Shown: one piece after another, positions 8,406-43,054 of the stretch | How positions within the stretch are numbered: position 1 is the stretch's first letter | Layout: every line of letters starts with the position of its first letter | Virus record (IMG/VR): IMGVR_UViG_2823592041_000002 | Location: 64,001-128,000 of that record | From: a virus | Lineage: Duplodnaviria > Caudoviricetes | Length of the DNA: 64,000 nt | Strand: one strand, 5' to 3' | Notes under the pieces: model-generated | Databases searched by the model: none | What the model was told of the DNA's origin: nothing | What the model saw: the letters and a program-made list of their open reading frames with translations, nothing else | Made by a program: the position numbers and the translations under genes

Positions 8406-8413
8406 TATAAATA
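8406..8413 (+). promoter_or_regulatory. T4-type late promoter TATAAATA (head operon)
   Basis: Exact consensus upstream of the prohead genes. Confidence 0.75.
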
Positions 8414-9159: not shown

Positions 9160-9810
9160 ATGAAACTGATAAAAGAGTTGATAGAAGAAGAAAACCTTCA
9201 ATTCATTACCGAAGAAAAAGACGGTGAGAAAAGATATTACATTGAAGGTGTTTTTATGCAAGCAGATGTTAAAAACAAAAATGGTCGAGTTTATGGTTCG
9301 AACATGCTTGCTGAAAAGGTTGAAGAGTATTCCAAAAACTTCATAGAAAAAAATAGAGCATATGGAGAACTCGGTCATCCATCAAACCCTTCTATTAATC
9401 TAGAGAGAGTTTCACATAGGATTATTTCATTAAGGAGAGATGGTTCAAACTTTGTAGGTAAGGCTCAAGTATCAAGTACCCCTTATGGTAACATCGTCAA
9501 AGGTCTTCTTGAAGACGGTGGAAAACTTGGTGTCTCATCTAGAGGTCTAGGATCATTAATGAAGGAAGATGGGATATTGAAAGTCCAGAGTGACTTTTTA
9601 ATCGTCACCCCTGCTGATATCGTAGCAGACCCATCTGCACCTGATGCTTTCGTTGAAGGTATTATGGAAGGTCGAGAATGGGTGTGGGATAACGGTATCA
9701 TTCGTGAGAAAACTGTAGAAGATTATAAACAAGTTGTCGAGAAGACTTCATCAAAAGATTTGAAGATGGTGAAGTTGAAATTGTTTGAAGATTTTCTTTC
9801 GAAACTGTAA
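9160..9810 (+). CDS. gp21: Prohead core protease
   Basis: YIEGVFMQAD.KNKNGRVY, GELGHP, GVSSRGLGSL, DIVADPSAPDAFV motifs. Confidence 0.97.
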   Translation: MKLIKELIEEENLQFITEEKDGEKRYYIEGVFMQADVKNKNGRVYGSNMLAEKVEEYSKNFIEKNRAYGELGHPSNPSINLERVSHRIISLRRDGSNFVGKAQVSSTPYGNIVKGLLEDGGKLGVSSRGLGSLMKEDGILKVQSDFLIVTPADIVADPSAPDAFVEGIMEGREWVWDNGIIREKTVEDYKQVVEKTSSKDLKMVKLKLFEDFLSKL

Positions 9811-30263: not shown

Positions 30264-30296
30264 GAGAGAGTGATCAACTTGATCACTCTCTCTTTT
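30264..30296 (+). terminator. Terminator / perfect 29-bp palindrome
   Basis: GAGAGAGTGATCAA-C-TTGATCACTCTCTC followed by TTTT. Confidence 0.8.
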
Positions 30297-30411
30297 ACTA
30301 GCCTTTTAATTAATAGTGTCATTTCTAATAGGCATAATTCTTGATATTTCACCCTCAAATATAGTATAATAGAATATAGTGAGAGACTAAATAGTTAGTG
30401 AGAGTTTTGAA

Positions 30412-31692
30412 ATGAGTTATTCTATACGAAAATATTTGAAAGAAGATGTCCTTGTTGAAGCAAAAGTAAACAAGAATTTACATCTTGAACACCTTGAAGA
30501 CAATCCACTCAATTTTGGTTATACTGGAATATCTAAAACAATAGATTTCCTAAACGCAACTATTGGTTTATTGTCTGGTTCTGCAAACAAGAGTGTTGAT
30601 GTCACTGTCAAATATGATGGTGCTCCTGCAATATTCTGTGGTACTGACCCAGAGGATGGTAAGTTTTTTGTTGGAACCAAATCAGTATTCTCCAAGAATG
30701 CTAAACTTGTTAAACGGGAGTCCGATTTAGACAAATATGGGTTCTCTGGACAACTCAAAGACAAACTATCCATTGCTCTCAAAGAACTCCCTAAATTGGG
30801 TATTGAAGGGGTCTTACAGGGTGATATGATGTTCACATCTGATGACATCACAACCAAAAAGATAAATGGTGAACCTTACATCACCTTTCAACCAAATACT
30901 ATCATGTATGCTGTTCCTAGCAATTCTGATCTTGCTTCTAAAATGTTGAAGTCTAAAATCGGGATCATCTTTCATACTACATATTCTGGTGATAAACTGG
31001 AAGACATGAAAGCATCTTTTGGTGCTAATGTTTCAAAATTGAACAAAGTCAGCTCAGTTTGGGTTGATGATGCATTTTATAAAGATGTAACTGGATCACT
31101 TTTCTCTGAAAAAGAAACTTCCGATTTAGAGAAAAAGATTGCTAAACTCCAAAGAGTTGGTAATGCTATTAGTAAGAAGTCTATGAATAATATTCTTTCC
31201 GTTCACGATGAATTGAAAACTTCTGAACTTGGTGCTGGATTGAAAACATATTTCAACTCAAATGTTAGAAGAGGTATTTTGCCAAAGTCTGGTGTTACTG
31301 GAGTGAATAACTTCCTTATTCATTTTGGAAATCATTTTGAAGATAAAGTTATCGCAAAAGTAAAACAAGAAAAGACAAAGAATCAGAAGAAGGAAAGAAA
31401 ACAACAACTCCTAAACCTTCTAATCAAGGAAAAAGTTGCACTAGCTAACCTATTAGAATTCATGTTATTGACGATAGATTTGAAGAACTCTGTGATAAGA
31501 AAATTAGAAACAGGAGTTAATTCTAAAATGGAAACTTTTGTAGTTGATAATAAAGGTATCCGAGTTACAAAACCAGAAGGATTTGTTGCTATTGATAAAC
31601 TATCTGGTGGTGCTGTAAAGTTCGTTGACAGACTTGAATTCTCCCAATTAAATTTCACAGTTGACAAGAACTGGTCTAAAGTCTCATCGTAG
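30412..31692 (+). CDS. RNA/DNA-ligase-superfamily nucleotidyltransferase (DUF6267-like), probable head-internal protein
   Basis: HLEHLED, VKYDG (motif I KxDG), QGD, EGFV (motif IV), VKFVDR (motif V); CTAAATA late-type promoter at 30387; N-terminus ends in LKE/LVE. Confidence 0.7.
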   Translation: MSYSIRKYLKEDVLVEAKVNKNLHLEHLEDNPLNFGYTGISKTIDFLNATIGLLSGSANKSVDVTVKYDGAPAIFCGTDPEDGKFFVGTKSVFSKNAKLVKRESDLDKYGFSGQLKDKLSIALKELPKLGIEGVLQGDMMFTSDDITTKKINGEPYITFQPNTIMYAVPSNSDLASKMLKSKIGIIFHTTYSGDKLEDMKASFGANVSKLNKVSSVWVDDAFYKDVTGSLFSEKETSDLEKKIAKLQRVGNAISKKSMNNILSVHDELKTSELGAGLKTYFNSNVRRGILPKSGVTGVNNFLIHFGNHFEDKVIAKVKQEKTKNQKKERKQQLLNLLIKEKVALANLLEFMLLTIDLKNSVIRKLETGVNSKMETFVVDNKGIRVTKPEGFVAIDKLSGGAVKFVDRLEFSQLNFTVDKNWSKVSS

Positions 31693-31700
31693 TATAAATA
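31693..31700 (+). promoter_or_regulatory. T4-type late promoter TATAAATA
   Basis: Exact consensus immediately after the 30412 ORF stop. Confidence 0.75.
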
Positions 31701-31724: not shown

Positions 31725-32231
31725 ATGACAGTTTATAGACCTTTCACTGAGAAACTTGGAGCATCAGACCCAACAACTTTTATCGGTAATGCCGGAGAAC
31801 TTTTTTACAATGCGGATACTCAACAAGTTTTCATTTCCGATGGTTCAACTCCTGGAGGTATTCCAATTGCTGGTGGTGGTGGGGTTCAATCTTCAATAAC
31901 AGATGGAACAAGCACTTTATCTTTTGATAGTAATAATAGAATTTCAATAGATACTCACATTATACCAGACACTAATGCTGCTTATGATTTAGGTAACGCT
32001 GAATACAAAATAAGACACTTATTTTTAAGTGACAATAGTTTAACTATGGGTGATACAACTCTAAGTGAACAGAATATTATCAGAAGTGTCGAAATTGGTG
32101 ATGAACCAGCACCAAACGTTCCTAATGAGCCTGGGAGAAAAGGTGATATTAGGATTAGTCCTGAACACCTATATATCTGTGTTGAAGAGAATCAATGGAG
32201 AAGAGTTTCTTTAGATCCTGCTTGGGTGTAA
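31725..32231 (+). CDS. Short fibre-like virion protein
   Basis: G..GELFY......ISDGSTPGG, HIIPDTNAAYDLG.AE.KIRHLFLS, G.KGDI....HLYICV..N.W.R motifs of T4-like fibre segments. Confidence 0.6.
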   Translation: MTVYRPFTEKLGASDPTTFIGNAGELFYNADTQQVFISDGSTPGGIPIAGGGGVQSSITDGTSTLSFDSNNRISIDTHIIPDTNAAYDLGNAEYKIRHLFLSDNSLTMGDTTLSEQNIIRSVEIGDEPAPNVPNEPGRKGDIRISPEHLYICVEENQWRRVSLDPAWV

Positions 32232-32234
32232 TAT

Positions 32235-32948
32235 ATGAAAAAGATTGTAATGATATTTGGTAGATTTAATCCACCTACAACAGGACATGAGTTGTTAGTG
32301 GACAAGAGTTTTCGTCACGCAAAGAAACTTGGAGCCGAATACGCAATTTTTACATCTAAATCAAATGACCCAAAAAAGAACCCACTATCCATAGATGATA
32401 AAATCAAGTTTATGAAATTATCATTCCCAAAACATAAAAACCGTATACACCATCCAGATGTTATAGGAATTAGAACACCTGCTGAAGTATTAGAATGGTT
32501 GAGTGAAAATGGATATGAAGAACTTCATTTTGTTGTTGGTTCTGATAGAGTAAAATCCTTTGAAGGGATGATAAACTCCATGCAAAAGAAAGGGTACACA
32601 AAGTTTAAGAAAGTTGTTGTTGTATCTGCTGGAGAAAGAGATCCAGATGCTGATGATGTTTCTGGAATGAGTGCATCTAAGATGAGGGGGTTTGTTAAGA
32701 AAGGTGATTTTGATTCTTTCGCAAAAGGCACTCCCATGAATTCTAAAGATGCTAGGAAAATGTTTGATAAACTAAAAGAGGGGATGAAACTCAGTGAAAG
32801 TTATATAACTGAAGTTTTAAAACCATCTGACCCTCTTGAGAAATGGATAAAGGATTTTCTAAAATCTGATGATCCAAGATTTGATGATAAATCAAAAGAG
32901 AAAATAATACAAATGGCTACAGCTGCATATTATGCTGCACAGGAATAA
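32235..32948 (+). CDS. HIGH-family (cytidyltransferase/NMNAT-like) nucleotidyltransferase with an extra C-terminal module
   Basis: FGRFNPPTTGH, KNPL, VVGSDRV, SAGERDPD, MSASKMR; after LSE/ITE a WIKDF..SD.P.F..KSK...MA.AAYY module. Confidence 0.85.
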   Translation: MKKIVMIFGRFNPPTTGHELLVDKSFRHAKKLGAEYAIFTSKSNDPKKNPLSIDDKIKFMKLSFPKHKNRIHHPDVIGIRTPAEVLEWLSENGYEELHFVVGSDRVKSFEGMINSMQKKGYTKFKKVVVVSAGERDPDADDVSGMSASKMRGFVKKGDFDSFAKGTPMNSKDARKMFDKLKEGMKLSESYITEVLKPSDPLEKWIKDFLKSDDPRFDDKSKEKIIQMATAAYYAAQE

Positions 32949-32958
32949 GGAGAATAAG

Positions 32959-34551
32959 ATGCCAGATATAAAAGATATGGAAGGCCCTGTAAGATTTAAG
33001 AAGGGTGTTGAATTATATTTTGACCCTAAAAAAGATATGTTTTATGACCCAAAGAAGAAAAAGTATGTTTCCGAAAAGGATATCTTAAAACTTGAAGATG
33101 TTGATTTCGATGAATTGGAAACAATAGAAGAAGGTGTATATGACCCTTCAATCTTCAAAGCTATATTTATGGCTGGAGGGCCTGGCAGCGGTAAATCTTA
33201 TGTATCTAATAAAGTGACAGCTGGACTTGGAATGAAGGTTGTAAATAGTGACGACATTTTTGAGATTTTCTTGAAGAAGGCTGGAATGACTACAACAGCA
33301 AAAGATATTTTTTCTGATAAAGGTCAAGAGATTAGAGGTAATGCTAAGAGTGTCACTTCTAAAAGAATGAAACTTTATTTGGAAGGTAGATTAGGTTTGC
33401 TTATAGATGGTACTGGTAAAGACTACTCAAACATTAAAAAGAAAGCTGATAGACTTAGAGACTTAGGATATGACACTTATATGGTTTTCGTCAATACATC
33501 TTTGGAAATCGCACAAGAAAGGAATGCTGCGAGGTCTAGAAAATTAGACCCAAAAGAAGTTGAAAAAATGTGGAGAGCTGTTCAAGAAAATATTGGATTG
33601 TTTCAGAAATATTTTGGTGCTAGAAATATGATTATTGTAGATAATAATGCTGCTGATGAGAAATATTTAACAGAAGTTTATAAACAAGTTAAAAAATTGA
33701 TAAAGAAACCTGCACAGAATAGATTAGCTAGAGATTGGATTTCTAAAGCTTTAGATGATAAAGTTAGAAAAGAGAGTGTTGAACTTGAAGAAGTTGACCT
33801 TTTTGAAAAATCTGAAGAATACCAAAAGTTCTTTCAATCTGCTTTGAAAAAGTTTGGTATAGACTCACCTGCTGAATTAGACGACGAGAAGAAAAAAGAA
33901 TTCTTTGACTATATTGATAAGAATTGGGAAGGTGAGAACGAAGAGGACGAAGAAGAAACTATTGAAGAACTATCACTTGAAGAAGCAATCGCAGAAGCAA
34001 AAGAGTGGAAAGTTGGAGCTCCTGTATTCATAGTAATAAGTTATCATACTAATGGAAAACACTCCACCACAGTTCTTAGGACAAAGGAGAAAGCAATGAA
34101 GTTTGCAAAAGATGAAGAATATCATGAAGATGATGTTAAAGGAACTGCTGTTCTTGATATGAAAGTTGGAAAGTTTATTGATAAGAAGACTGGAAAGCAC
34201 ATCAAGGAAGACGTTGAACTTTCCGAAAAGATGCAAAAATATGTAGATGCTTGTGGGAAAGATTTCACAAACTATTCCCTCAAAGAAGGAAAGAAAGATT
34301 ATGAAATTTATCATAAAACTTTCACATCCGCAATTGAAGAAGTAGAGAAGTTTGCTGAGAAGAATGGATATGAAATAGACTCAGATGAAATGTTCAATAA
34401 AGTTGGCACTGGCCCTAAAAAACCTTCTGTCGGTAAAACTAATGAATATCATCTGACACTAATGAAAAATGGTAAAGAAGATAGAAAGAAATTACATTTT
34501 CAAGTTTATGGATTAAAATCCCAGTATGAACTGAACATGTACATCTCATAG
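32959..34551 (+). CDS. Multi-module protein containing a P-loop kinase (zeta-toxin/PNK-like); probable head-internal polyprotein
   Basis: KAIFMAGGPGSGKS, NSD, IDGTG, RN..R.R lid; four further small modules separated by acidic linkers; AAGGAG SD before ATG 32959. Confidence 0.75.
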   Translation: MPDIKDMEGPVRFKKGVELYFDPKKDMFYDPKKKKYVSEKDILKLEDVDFDELETIEEGVYDPSIFKAIFMAGGPGSGKSYVSNKVTAGLGMKVVNSDDIFEIFLKKAGMTTTAKDIFSDKGQEIRGNAKSVTSKRMKLYLEGRLGLLIDGTGKDYSNIKKKADRLRDLGYDTYMVFVNTSLEIAQERNAARSRKLDPKEVEKMWRAVQENIGLFQKYFGARNMIIVDNNAADEKYLTEVYKQVKKLIKKPAQNRLARDWISKALDDKVRKESVELEEVDLFEKSEEYQKFFQSALKKFGIDSPAELDDEKKKEFFDYIDKNWEGENEEDEEETIEELSLEEAIAEAKEWKVGAPVFIVISYHTNGKHSTTVLRTKEKAMKFAKDEEYHEDDVKGTAVLDMKVGKFIDKKTGKHIKEDVELSEKMQKYVDACGKDFTNYSLKEGKKDYEIYHKTFTSAIEEVEKFAEKNGYEIDSDEMFNKVGTGPKKPSVGKTNEYHLTLMKNGKEDRKKLHFQVYGLKSQYELNMYIS

Positions 34552-34559
34552 GAAATAAA

Positions 34560-36002
34560 ATGGATCGAATATCACAATATAAAAAATATCTTAATAATGG
34601 AAAAGAAGATGTTGTGATAGAAGAGGAAGAAATACTCAAACCTTCTGAAATCAAAATATTAGTTCTTACATCTGCAACGGATAGTGAAGAACCTACTGTA
34701 AATAGATTGGAAAAGGTTTGTAAAAAGAGGAGTATTGAACTTCACAGGATTTCTTCTGATAAAGCTTATGTATCCAAGAAGAGTGAATCTAAAGAAACCC
34801 TGATCATTTATAATTATGATGGTGAGGGTAATTCTATGGAAGTAAACTCCAATGATAATATAGTTTGTATTGCCAGAAGAACTGTTGTAACAAACAGAAA
34901 TGCTGGAATATTACATAAGATGTTATCTGATCATGGAGTTTTCTGTATTAACTCCCCAAGTAGTGTAAGAACTGCAAGCAATAAGTTTAACGCATATATC
35001 AACTTTATTAATAATGACATCAAAACACCAAGAACTTGTTTAGTGAGTGATGTGAAATACATTGACGATGCTCTCAAAGAAGTCGGTGGAAAGTTTCCTG
35101 TGATTCTAAAATTTACAGAAGGTCATGGTGGAAAAGGTGTTATGAAACTTGATTCCAGAGACAGTTTAGTTTCCGTTATTCAAGCATTAAGAAGTGATGA
35201 AGAAAATAAAAAAGAGTTAATCCTACAAGAATATAAAGAAGTCAAAGACGATAGAAGAATTCTTGTATTAAATGGTAAGGTGATTGCTGCTGCAAAAAGA
35301 AAGAAAATGAAAAGAGATTTCAGATCAAATGTTTCTTTGGGTGCGGAAGTAGAACCTTATAAACCTACAGAGGAAGAAATAGAGATTGCTGTTAAAACTG
35401 CAAAGTCCGTTGATTGTTATTATTGTGGTGTTGATATCATAGAATACAAAGATGAGTATTTTGTTTTAGAAGTTAATCCATCGCCTGGCTCTAAGTCAAG
35501 TTATTGGGATTTAGATAAAAAGAAAAATATCAACGGAACCGAATTGATTGCAAAACTTGTAGATGGTATAATGGATAAAGATGACTGGAAACATGAGACA
35601 AAAGAAGTCGGAGTTATAGAGGTTGTTGATGTCTTAGAAAAGGGTATTGAGCCAATGACTGCTAAAATGGACACTGGAAATAGTGGATATAATGTTATTG
35701 GTGTTGATAAATTACAAGTTAAAAATAAGACTGCTGAGTTTTATATAAAAGGGTTCGATAAAAAAATAACAAAAAAAGTTCTACCTAAAAAATCTTTGAT
35801 TAAAAATAATGGAAGTAAGACAGAAGAAAGGTATTGTGTAAGTTTTGATATAAAGGTTGGAGAAAAGGTGTATAAAGATGTACATTTTTCTCTTTCAGAT
35901 AGAGATAATATGAATCACACAATATTGATTTCTAGAAAATTTATGATTGATTCTAAAATGAGTGTGAATCCAAAGAAAAAGTTTGTTTTAGGGGAATTAT
36001 AA
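34560..36002 (+). CDS. RimK-like ATP-grasp ligase fused to a retropepsin-like (RimB-type) aspartic protease
   Basis: NKF, TPRT, FPVILK..G.GG.GV, LQEY, DFRSNVSLG, GVDII, LEVN.SPG; C-terminal AKMDTGN, LSDR..M...ILISR. Confidence 0.88.
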   Translation: MDRISQYKKYLNNGKEDVVIEEEEILKPSEIKILVLTSATDSEEPTVNRLEKVCKKRSIELHRISSDKAYVSKKSESKETLIIYNYDGEGNSMEVNSNDNIVCIARRTVVTNRNAGILHKMLSDHGVFCINSPSSVRTASNKFNAYINFINNDIKTPRTCLVSDVKYIDDALKEVGGKFPVILKFTEGHGGKGVMKLDSRDSLVSVIQALRSDEENKKELILQEYKEVKDDRRILVLNGKVIAAAKRKKMKRDFRSNVSLGAEVEPYKPTEEEIEIAVKTAKSVDCYYCGVDIIEYKDEYFVLEVNPSPGSKSSYWDLDKKKNINGTELIAKLVDGIMDKDDWKHETKEVGVIEVVDVLEKGIEPMTAKMDTGNSGYNVIGVDKLQVKNKTAEFYIKGFDKKITKKVLPKKSLIKNNGSKTEERYCVSFDIKVGEKVYKDVHFSLSDRDNMNHTILISRKFMIDSKMSVNPKKKFVLGEL

Positions 36003-41453: not shown

Positions 41454-41840
41454 ATGAAAGATCTTAACAAAGAGAATATTGACATATTTTCTGAATTATC
41501 TTATAGAAATCCGCAGTGCTTATCATCTGAGGATTTCTATGAGGATATGAGTAGGGTTAAATATGTTAAGAGGTTGTTCAATAAATATAATAGGGGTGGT
41601 GAAATAAAGACCAGATTAATTCTCAATCACATTATAGCATTTTATAATGTTTTTGAAAATAGAGATGCCACTAGAATACTTTTCTTTAAGATGGACCAAA
41701 ATTATTGGCCTTTATTAAAAACTTTTTTGTTATACTTATCTTATATGCCAGAAATAGTTCACGGTATTAATGGTAGAAATATTATGTCCGAGGATATAAA
41801 TATAGATGTGGCTATTTTTAGAGAATTGGAGAATATATGA
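41454..41840 (+). CDS. Conserved T4-like hypothetical protein
   Basis: Y.NPQC...DFYED..R.KY.KRL...Y...G....RLILNHII..YNVF, a family common in marine T4-likes (recall). Confidence 0.75.
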   Translation: MKDLNKENIDIFSELSYRNPQCLSSEDFYEDMSRVKYVKRLFNKYNRGGEIKTRLILNHIIAFYNVFENRDATRILFFKMDQNYWPLLKTFLLYLSYMPEIVHGINGRNIMSEDINIDVAIFRELENI

Positions 41841-43054
41841 AAAGTGTTTTGAGAGAGGGGTTTCTTTCAAATGCCCTCAACTATGTTGTATTATATAAAT
41901 TAATTTCTAGGATGATAAAACCTATTAAGAAAACAAAAGCTTTTGAGCTTGGTATTGTTGATGAAAAAGGTAAAATTCTTAGAAAGAGGAGAAAATTGAA
42001 AACTAAAGAAGAAAAGGATGCTCTAACGAGATTGGACATATTTGTTTTCAATTTAAAAAGAGTTCTTGGTCCTCTTGGTAGGTCTAAACTTGCAAATATT
42101 GTGGGTGCTTTATATCTCCTTAAAGAACAAGATAATCTAGAAATGTTCGACGATGAAGAAAATAGATTTGTTCTTGTAGAGTCTAGATATTCAAGTTTTG
42201 TGGAATCTTTGTCCAGAGAAGATTATCTTTTTATAGAAGAGATTGCTAATGCTGTTGGTGATGGGTCGAACGTTGCTGGACTTACAGGTGAGCCGCCTGT
42301 TGATCTTAAAAAGAAGAAAAAGAAAGATAAAAAAAAAGAGCAAAAGAACAACTTAGTCGAGGGGAAGACACAGGAAATCCCTAGAAGAAATATTAAAGCT
42401 TTAATCGGTAAAGCTAAGTCAAGCATTATAAACAAAAATATTACAATACGCTCAATCGCAAATCAGATTGAGAAAACTCTAAGAAGAAAGTATGATATAG
42501 AGATATCTATTGAGAAATCTTCAAAAGTTGCTTCTGGGTCAATAATAATAAATGCTTATTATGATCCAGAAAATGATAAAAATGGTGAAGATGTTCCAAT
42601 TCAAATAGAATTGAAAGTTTCAGACCCAGAAATTCTATTAAATTTGGATAATTATTTGTGGAATAAGTTTTCTAATGAACTTGCGGATGCAATTCAACAT
42701 GAATATCTCCACATGTCACAGTACAGAAATAGAGGTTTTGTTAAAACCTCTGAGTATAAACCTAAAGTTACAAAAGAAATAAAGGATTTTTATAATGCTA
42801 AAGTTTATTTAGGAAATTCTGATGAGATAGAGGCATACGCTTTGAACATCTCTAGCGAACTCCTAAATAAGTATAGAACAAAACAAAAGACTATTGCTAA
42901 TGTTAAACGATTGGATAAAAGTCTTTTCACAGCATCACCGAATTTGTTTGCTTATTTCATGGCATTCAATTTTGATAGTAGACATCCAGTAATTAGAAAA
43001 CTTCTGAAGAAAGTTTTATTGTACATCGAAAGTCAAAGACCTTCTAGGAATTAG
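41837..43054 (+). CDS. Conserved T4-like head-associated protein fused to an HExxH zincin-like domain
   Basis: KAFELGIVDEKGK.L N-terminal family; NAVGDGSNVAGLTGEPPV; after LVE, IQHEYLHMSQ...Y....EIEAYA. Confidence 0.6.
   Translation: MKSVLREGFLSNALNYVVLYKLISRMIKPIKKTKAFELGIVDEKGKILRKRRKLKTKEEKDALTRLDIFVFNLKRVLGPLGRSKLANIVGALYLLKEQDNLEMFDDEENRFVLVESRYSSFVESLSREDYLFIEEIANAVGDGSNVAGLTGEPPVDLKKKKKKDKKKEQKNNLVEGKTQEIPRRNIKALIGKAKSSIINKNITIRSIANQIEKTLRRKYDIEISIEKSSKVASGSIIINAYYDPENDKNGEDVPIQIELKVSDPEILLNLDNYLWNKFSNELADAIQHEYLHMSQYRNRGFVKTSEYKPKVTKEIKDFYNAKVYLGNSDEIEAYALNISSELLNKYRTKQKTIANVKRLDKSLFTASPNLFAYFMAFNFDSRHPVIRKLLKKVLLYIESQRPSRN

Follow-up and report, generated by a model that had tools for sequence, protein, structure and literature searches.

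A putative multi-cassette polyprotein of a marine T4-like phage with conserved L/I-x-E motifs at its module boundaries

The marine T4-like myophage represented by IMG/VR record IMGVR_UViG_2823592041_000002 (136.9 kb) carries an open reading frame (ORF) whose 530-amino-acid product consists of five modules, a kinase and four small domains, separated by acidic linkers. We analysed this ORF within a 64,000-nucleotide stretch of the record (positions 64,001 to 128,000; hereafter the window), and all positions below are window positions unless a locus is named. The comparison with relatives points to L/I-x-E tripeptides as a conserved feature of the module boundaries, and to these same boundaries as places where modules are gained and lost. 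From this comparison and by analogy with T4, we give an even chance to the reading that the ORF encodes a polyprotein, in which internal-protein-like cargo is concatenated and then processed by the prohead protease. Among isolates, two members of the Kyanoviridae are closest to the source phage: Pelagibacter phage HTVC008M and Methylophilales phage Melnitz.

Residues are numbered in the 530-aa product, and the modules are called M1 to M5 from the N- to the C-terminus, with M2 being a kinase. The ORF and its parts are listed here, together with the confidence of an AlphaFold2 model (predicted local distance difference test, pLDDT). An arrow (↓) in a peptide marks a candidate cut.

32947–32952, + strand: ribosome-binding site AAGGAG, read from the sequence, 6 nt 5' of the ATG at 32959
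32959–34551, + strand: polyprotein-like ORF with five modules, 530 aa
32959–33096, + strand: M1, residues 1–46, a three-stranded beta unit and a helix (pLDDT 74–92)
33089–33104, + strand: left copy of a 16-nt direct repeat, AACTTGAAGATGTTGA, flanking the kinase cassette
33097–33132, + strand: Junction 1 (LEDVDFDELETIEE), disordered (pLDDT <50), with a candidate cut after IEE (codon 33130–33132)
33133–33717, + strand: M2, residues 59–253, a P-loop kinase with the Walker A motif GGPGSGKS
33718–33807, + strand: Junction 2 (…VRKESVELEEVDLFE), pLDDT <50 at residues 254–283, with candidate cuts after LEE and LFE
33782–33797, + strand: right copy of the 16-nt direct repeat (AACTTGAAGAAGTTGA)
33808–33933, + strand: M3, residues 284–325, a helical hairpin (EEYQKFFQSALKKFG...FFDYIDKNW; pLDDT 91–95)
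33934–33972, + strand: Junction 3 (ENEEDEEETIEE), an acidic linker with pLDDT <50 at residues 326–335 and a candidate cut after IEE
33973–34164, + strand: M4, residues 339–402, a small alpha/beta unit (pLDDT 73–82)
34165–34287, + strand: Junction 4 and a short helix (…IKEDVELSEKMQKYVDAC…SLKE), pLDDT <50 at residues 403–422 and 432–445, with candidate cuts after IKE, LSE and LKE (codon 34285–34287)
34288–34548, + strand: M5, residues 444–530, a widespread, unannotated alpha/beta domain that is usually C-terminal (pLDDT 97)

The longest possible frame runs from 32932 to 34551, and the gene upstream, which encodes a nucleotidyltransferase (NTase), stops at 32948. We took the ATG at 32959 as the start because it is preceded by the AAGGAG box and because the database version of the protein, P0002 (530 aa), begins there; P0002 was found on 6 contigs. 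These observations support the single ORF and the start codon assumed in a first-pass annotation of this DNA.

The AlphaFold2 model of the full ORF, built on a 60-sequence alignment, contains five folded units (residues 10–45, 61–250, 286–322, 340–402 and 446–530) with segments of pLDDT <50 between them. Because of these separators and a predicted template-modelling score (pTM) of 0.43 for the full-length model, no fixed packing between the modules is predicted, in keeping with the earlier expectation of independent domains rather than a single fold. M5 modelled alone yielded the same fold, with the conserved LKE↓G stretch directly upstream disordered. M1 contains a YFDPKK/FYDPKK repeat and has no [LI]xE upstream of it, and the aromatic repeat YFDPKKDMFYDPKK previously described in this module is present.

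The sites IEE↓G, LFE↓K, IEE↓L, LSE↓K and LKE↓G lie within or beside the linkers. The boundary strings from which the first-pass annotation had proposed cleavage are all found in the product: ETIEE↓GVYDPS at the kinase, followed by VELEEVDLFE↓KSEEYQKFF and ETIEE↓LSLEEAIAE↓AKEWK, and IKEDVELSE...SLKE↓GKKDYEIYH ... YELNMYIS at the M5 boundary. LKLE, also listed there as a site, has K at P3 and is not an [IL]-x-E tripeptide. The ORF contains 12 [IL]xE motifs compared to 7.2 ± 2.4 in shuffled sequences (p = 0.04). Five of the 12 fall inside residues of pLDDT <50, which make up 15% of the ORF (binomial p = 0.023), and when the linkers were shuffled individually the 5 observed sites compared with 2.0 expected (p = 0.019). 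The linkers are 23% Glu, a composition in which the motif is expected about three times more often than in the domains. The excess within this one sequence is suggestive and not convincing by itself, whereas the comparative data are convincing.

At the N-terminal edge of the kinase we compared 59 distinct contexts, taking as P3 the position 18 residues ahead of the P-loop. This residue is L in 30 contexts, I in 23, V in 4, M in 1 and F in 1; P1 is E and P1' is G in 57/59 each, and P2 varies freely. The motif is kept both where the kinase is internal (33/34 contexts) and where it is N-terminal (24/25). The segment upstream of M5 carries hydrophobic-x-E-[AGS] in 80 of 96 contexts, compared to 2 of 89 control windows; this motif sits in a low-pLDDT segment, and the fold therefore does not explain its conservation. 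As judged from these contexts, L/I-x-E is a conserved boundary feature of the modules.

The junctions are also where the architecture changes. We marked about 20 cassette families by signature peptides and compared 30 relatives, among which 29 architectures occur; examples are A-B-C-D-E-F (the window), A-B-C-G-D-I-E-F, A-C-G-D-F and A-S-C-H-G-J-I-L-e-F. M1 is the constant N-terminal module, present in all 27 lineage relatives that retain their N-terminus. Junction 3 is the main insertion point, and in P0004–P0008 cassettes G and H are inserted there. Inserted cassettes are bounded by the stereotyped sequences EE(T/N/S)(I/V)EE or KKIEE↓LSLEE, and the window polyprotein also carries VELEE and VELSE. 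The two copies of the 16-nt repeat that flank the kinase cassette are identical at 15/16 bases. Kinase-less relatives (P0014, P0019, P0020 and P0028) read ...LALEEVDLFEKSEEY..., with M1 joined directly to ...LEEVDLFEK, which is the exact product of recombination between the 16-nt repeats. This supports the earlier idea that the acidic linkers act as plug-in points, as do the 29 architectures among the 30 relatives. The proposed free shuffling of cargo fares less well: the relative order of the cassettes is invariant in the 30 relatives of the window's lineage, and the variation is therefore one of presence and absence, not of free permutation. Homology breakpoints fell near [LIV]xE in 538 of 972 cases compared to 194 expected, by a measure that is noisy. 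Together, the comparisons of these relatives' sequences show modularity and junction-based cassette exchange.

A more distant phage, L044, has two adjacent multi-module proteins (L044:1590-4245) that reuse EEVELDE four times and have M5 in an internal position. The junction-repeat principle thus appears to recur there with a different sequence.

Separate searches with each module, which the first-pass annotation had suggested, recovered the kinase, M3 and M5 as stand-alone or recombined units elsewhere, while for M1 and M4 only close relatives were recovered in viral contigs. In HTVC008M and Melnitz the kinase has a gene of its own, about 220 aa long. It also stands alone in L029; there, the second gene 3' of it encodes a stand-alone M5 of 104 aa. 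Melnitz has in addition a kinase-less multi-module protein with M5, in the syntenic position after its DUF6267 and NTase genes. M3 is a stand-alone 60-aa gene in L055 and is found inside 'DNA ligase 1' of Tenacibaculum phage pT24. M5 is very common: a cut-off of E<=1e-3 gives 3159 representative clusters and one of E<=1e-10 gives 1064, the proteins being 101–923 aa long. It nearly always ends at the C-terminus in these clusters, and in viral contigs it is found at more than 531 loci. Stand-alone M1 or M4 was not found in viral contigs, where a search with these modules reaches just close relatives. No paralogues of M1 or M3–M5 were found in the phage's own genome.

An M3-like hairpin is also seen near the N-terminus of a 475-aa hypothetical protein of Pseudomonas phage vB_PpuM-SKa-4 (L004:1291-2718), whose gene directly follows the portal gene. 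Such a position is typical for head-internal or scaffold-associated proteins.

Sequence profiles above the curated cut-offs place M2, with its Walker A motif, among the P-loop kinases of the AAA_33/Zeta_toxin type (AAA_33, 2.9e-13, 50.8 bits against a cut-off of 27; Zeta_toxin, 4.2e-13, 49.6 bits against 22.3). It also matches phrog_12810, phrog_2071 and phrog_505 (1.8e-7). The top Foldseek match of the kinase model is the polynucleotide kinase domain of Clostridium thermocellum (4mde, E 2.8e-7, TMt 0.68), with shikimate and adenylate kinases within a factor of ten of this score and identity to solved kinases <21%. An adenylate kinase (adk) has been annotated in such phages in a pelagimyophage paper (PMC7029224). 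It is possibly the same kinase family, and M2 matches solved adenylate kinases only weakly in sequence. Neither Pfam nor PHROG yielded a family above cut-off for M1, M3, M4 or M5; the matches below it were OCRE, Antiholin, DUF7336 and Nif11, and M3 matched phrog_28651 at 6.6e-8. M5 had no fold match in the PDB, where the best Foldseek E was 0.16; VIA reached a Z of 4.7 at best, at which PAS-like, KA1-like and other unrelated folds tied, and the ESM Atlas returned viral 'hypothetical protein' clusters only, with scores <=0.82.

The stand-alone homologues provide a link to head assembly. In T4, gp21 cleaves after Glu in L/I-X-E, and gp22, gp67 and gp68 are each cut into several fragments (PMC9026906). 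The first 10 residues of T4 internal protein (IP) III, MKTYQEFIAE, are enough to bring any protein into the core of the prohead, after which they are removed (PMC9026906, PMC8442874, PMC3012670). Leaders of this kind precede the stand-alone kinases (MKSFNEFIIE, MKSFDEFLVE, MKTFAELQE in Melnitz and MIPFILKE in HTVC008M), M5 (MKTVQEFLKE, MISLIKLIKE, MKLEKYLNE), M3 (MKKYNEILKE in L055) and NTases (MKKFSEIIE, MKKFSEYIIE, MKSFSQFLTE in P-SSM2, L140:2150-3424, and MKGFSNFLIE in S-N03, L139:2411-3286). They are up to 7/10 identical to MKTYQEFIAE, end in the same [LI]xE, and in N-terminal contexts are most often exactly 10 residues long. At L062:1107-5793, ten consecutive small genes begin with MK[ST]xx[EQ][FY][LNIV]xE (for example MKSVDEFLDE, MKTFIEFNEE and MKSIKEFLRE), including M5 and a 306-aa P-loop kinase; by analogy, this array resembles the hyperplastic internal-protein locus that T-even phages carry. 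The leader pattern was found in 26 of 1742 distinct ORFs of the fetched loci and in 0 after shuffling. The proposal that gp21 cuts the polyprotein gains weight because stand-alone homologues carry leaders that resemble the T4 capsid-targeting sequence (CTS) and end in the same [LI]xE.

A 'cytidyltransferase' gene of the P-SSM2/S-N03 type occurs in hundreds of T4-like cyanophage records. In S-CREM2, the homologous cytidylyltransferase and two hypothetical proteins encoded directly downstream have been detected in purified virions by mass spectrometry (PMC10665884).

The source phage encodes the proposed processing enzyme:

9160–9810, + strand: gp21-type prohead protease (Peptidase_S77, 4.4e-32; phrog_207, 1.5e-72)

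In gp23 of this phage, SLNE↓T stands at the position of LTE↓A in T4, and gp22 contains 18 [IL]xE sites. All three M5-carrying viral genomes that are >=90% complete encode an S77 protease. The N-terminus of the prohead protease itself reads MKLIKELIEE (9160–9189), with an LIE site that ends at residue 9, and an 'LIE-9' site at the same position has been discussed for autoprocessing of T4 gp21 (PMC9026906).

The genes flanking the polyprotein are all on the + strand, and the following features surround it.

31693–31700, + strand: T4-type late-promoter motif TATAAATA, upstream of a unit formed by the gene at 31725, the NTase, the polyprotein and a RimK-like gene
32235–32948, + strand: HIGH-type NTase (Pfam CTP_transf_like)
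about 32802–32945, + strand: C-terminal tail of the NTase, one cassette of a variable set, recurring in P0034, P0043 and P0049
34560–36002: RimK-like gene, the 3' neighbour of the polyprotein, with a RimK ATP-grasp domain (5e-36) and a PF05618 retropepsin-like/RimB-type domain (3.3e-8)

The order DUF6267, NTase, polyprotein is shared with L006 and L007, and the order NTase, polyprotein, RimK-like gene with L145. The separate module that the first-pass annotation saw appended to the NTase after LSE/ITE is the tail listed above, which recurs inside the polyprotein relatives P0034, P0043 and P0049. The motif TATAAATA occurs 24 times in the window, compared to 7.65 expected, and nearly always on the + strand (for example at 8406, 9822, 11009, 31693 and 35998). 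Copies lie directly 5' of the gp22 and gp23 genes, and several precede head genes. On sequence grounds, these copies fit T4-type late promoters.

The kinase (33133–33717) directly follows the NTase and lies two genes 3' of the DUF6267 gene (30412–31692); together, the three could heal and seal nucleic-acid ends, or else serve nucleotide salvage. The DUF6267 gene is preceded by a sigma70-like promoter (30341–30370) and a strong terminator (30264–30292). Its product, like those of L001:2242-3474 and L003:290-1546, has an [LI]xE a few residues ahead of a conserved KNxHLEHLED, and the sites in the three phages are VLVE↓AK, LLVE↓DK and YITE↓DK. By its sequence, the DUF6267 protein may likewise be a protease substrate.

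RimK extends the C-terminal end of RpsF with glutamate and needs that end. A cut after ...IEE would leave -EE C-termini that resemble the RpsF end, and glutamate might then be added to such ends of released pieces by the neighbouring RimK-like ligase.

If the ORF does encode processed cargo, its life cycle may be outlined as follows. The TATAAATA motif suggests that the gene is transcribed late, alongside structural genes. The product would then enter the prohead core, and either M1 or an internal leader-like helix would have to target it there. The gp21 homologue would cut after the junction Glu, as motif conservation and T4 biochemistry suggest, to free M1, the kinase, M3, M4 and M5. By analogy with T4 IPI–III and Alt, the pieces would remain inside the head and be delivered into the host along with the DNA. 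Comparison of relatives shows that the repeated coding sequence of the junctions doubles as short homology for cassette gain and loss. A possible role for the modules as anti-defence or host-takeover effectors, which the first-pass annotation proposed, would be an analogy with T4 IPI and Alt.

Several observations weigh against processed cargo. The N-terminus of the ORF, MPDIKDMEGPVRF (MPDIKDMEGP), is not CTS-like and lacks [LI]xE, and the leaderless ORF therefore has no known element that would take the polyprotein into the prohead. Within this genome the strict leader pattern is matched by gp21 alone, and the window NTase is leaderless too, beginning directly with its Rossmann strand. Acidic, helical, E/L/I-rich linkers yield [IL]xE fairly often, and the excess over this background is modest (p about 0.02–0.04). 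Conservation of the motif could mean that it is part of the domains, or a gene-fusion relic that doubles as recombination homology. Finally, the architectures were taken from assembled metagenomes, and some chimeras could be among them. Loose matches to the leader pattern in the genome are the DUF6267 protein and the ORF at 41837. The latter (41837–43054, 405 aa) begins with MKSVLRE↓G, which is short, leader-like and closes with L-x-E-G.

The main alternative is that the product stays uncleaved and acts as a 'beads on a string' multidomain protein, a kinase with accessory or binding domains whose [LI]xE motifs are fusion relics, linker composition or recombination homology. We regard this as unlikely, though it has real points in its favour. 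The ORF has no N-terminal targeting leader, its Glu-rich linkers would throw up the motif at the raised rate given above, and direct DNA repeats do lie at its junctions. The fixed cassette order is what differential deletion from one long ancestor would leave. In other phages the kinase is fused to an NTase and DUF5824 (all three are joined in P0112), which suggests that these domains work together. However, a relic would be expected to drift, whereas P3 and P1 are kept in all but one of the internal kinase contexts while P2 is free. The junctions also differ by lineage, with EETIEE here and EEVELDE in L044, yet all keep [LI]xE, and the motif lies outside the confident fold.

Processing by a protease other than gp21 is quite improbable. 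The candidates would be the RimB-type domain of the RimK-like gene (34560–36002) or a host enzyme. In favour of the first, the neighbouring gene joins a RimK ATP-grasp to PF05618 and follows the polyprotein in L145 as well, and RimB is able to cut internal Glu runs (PMC11957791). However, the Pseudomonas enzyme requires 5–6 contiguous Glu (PMC11957791), and the longest run in the ORF is 3 (EEE in NEEDEEETIEE); we rejected RimB-type cleavage of the linkers on this specificity. In addition, no RimK-like gene lies beside the homologous genes in L044, nor was one recognised at that place in Melnitz, and the conserved hydrophobic P3 suits gp21 and not RimB. That the pattern is a chance or assembly artefact with no biological meaning is highly implausible: the motif count in the sequence is only marginally above expectation, but P0002 is present on 6 contigs, the boundaries are conserved across hundreds of divergent homologues and the domain folds are confident.

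Processed cargo of this type would resemble several known systems and differ from each. T4 IPI, IPII, IPIII and Alt share with it an S77 protease, L/I-x-E followed by a small residue at the boundaries, and the 10-residue leaders that are seen here on stand-alone homologues. The T-even IP locus also holds diverse, fast-changing cargo that is unrelated except for the shared leader (PMC3012670, PMC9026906). The T4 proteins, however, are single proteins cut once, whereas here several cargo units lie in one leaderless ORF with internal sites; its cargo includes a kinase and unannotated folds, and its hosts are marine heterotrophs. T4 gp22, gp67 and gp68 and the inner-body or ejection proteins of phiKZ-like and SPN3US-like phages are closer in that one polypeptide receives several Glu cuts from a gp21-type protease in the prohead (PMC9026906). 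In T4, the fragments of gp22, gp67 and gp68 are for the most part scaffold debris lost from the head, whereas the pieces here are confidently folded domains with stand-alone homologues, an indication that the products are functional.

Polyvalent proteins (Iyer et al. 2017, PMC5512222) likewise combine many unrelated domains, are mosaic, and are predicted to be delivered with the DNA, with proteolytic release proposed. With five units and its many relatives' architectures (29 in 30), the ORF falls within their range of 2–15 unrelated domains in mosaic arrangements. When the ORF, its modules and eight relatives were scanned with Pfam and PHROG, none of the polyvalent hub domains (zincin-like MPTase, ART, ParB, anti-restriction) was detected, of which remote versions are possible, and in cassette-rich relatives the scans recognised only the kinase, the NTase and DUF5824. 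The ORF also differs from polyvalent proteins in that its domains are much smaller, its junctions are stereotyped, and its protease would act in trans from the head-assembly machinery.

Processing that combines the T4 capsid-targeting leader with L/I-x-E is textbook knowledge and, to our knowledge, has been described for only a few single coliphage proteins. Relative to such cargo, the new element would be fusion into a multi-cassette polyprotein, and processing by gp21 and injection are well motivated by the comparison with T4. A broader picture, which we put forward a little short of an even chance, is that aquatic T4-like phages hold a large repertoire of leader-marked, capsid-delivered cargo that includes the kinase, the NTase, M5, M3 and others. 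In some lineages this cargo would be fused into a combinatorial polyprotein from which the prohead protease frees up to about 10 small effectors per molecule, and the protease-site junctions would double as recombination points, forming a diversity-generating cassette array. If this is true, the same device would be in use across the abundant ocean phages of SAR11, OM43 and cyanobacteria, and enzymes such as a kinase and a nucleotidyltransferase, together with a very common unannotated domain, would be tagged for injection into the host. The leader and the junction motif would then provide a simple sequence rule by which to list virion-delivered proteins of uncultured T4-like phages. The fused, cassette-swapping form would show how injected cargo can vary quickly, with relevance to the search for anti-defence proteins and to the engineering of T4-based protein delivery.

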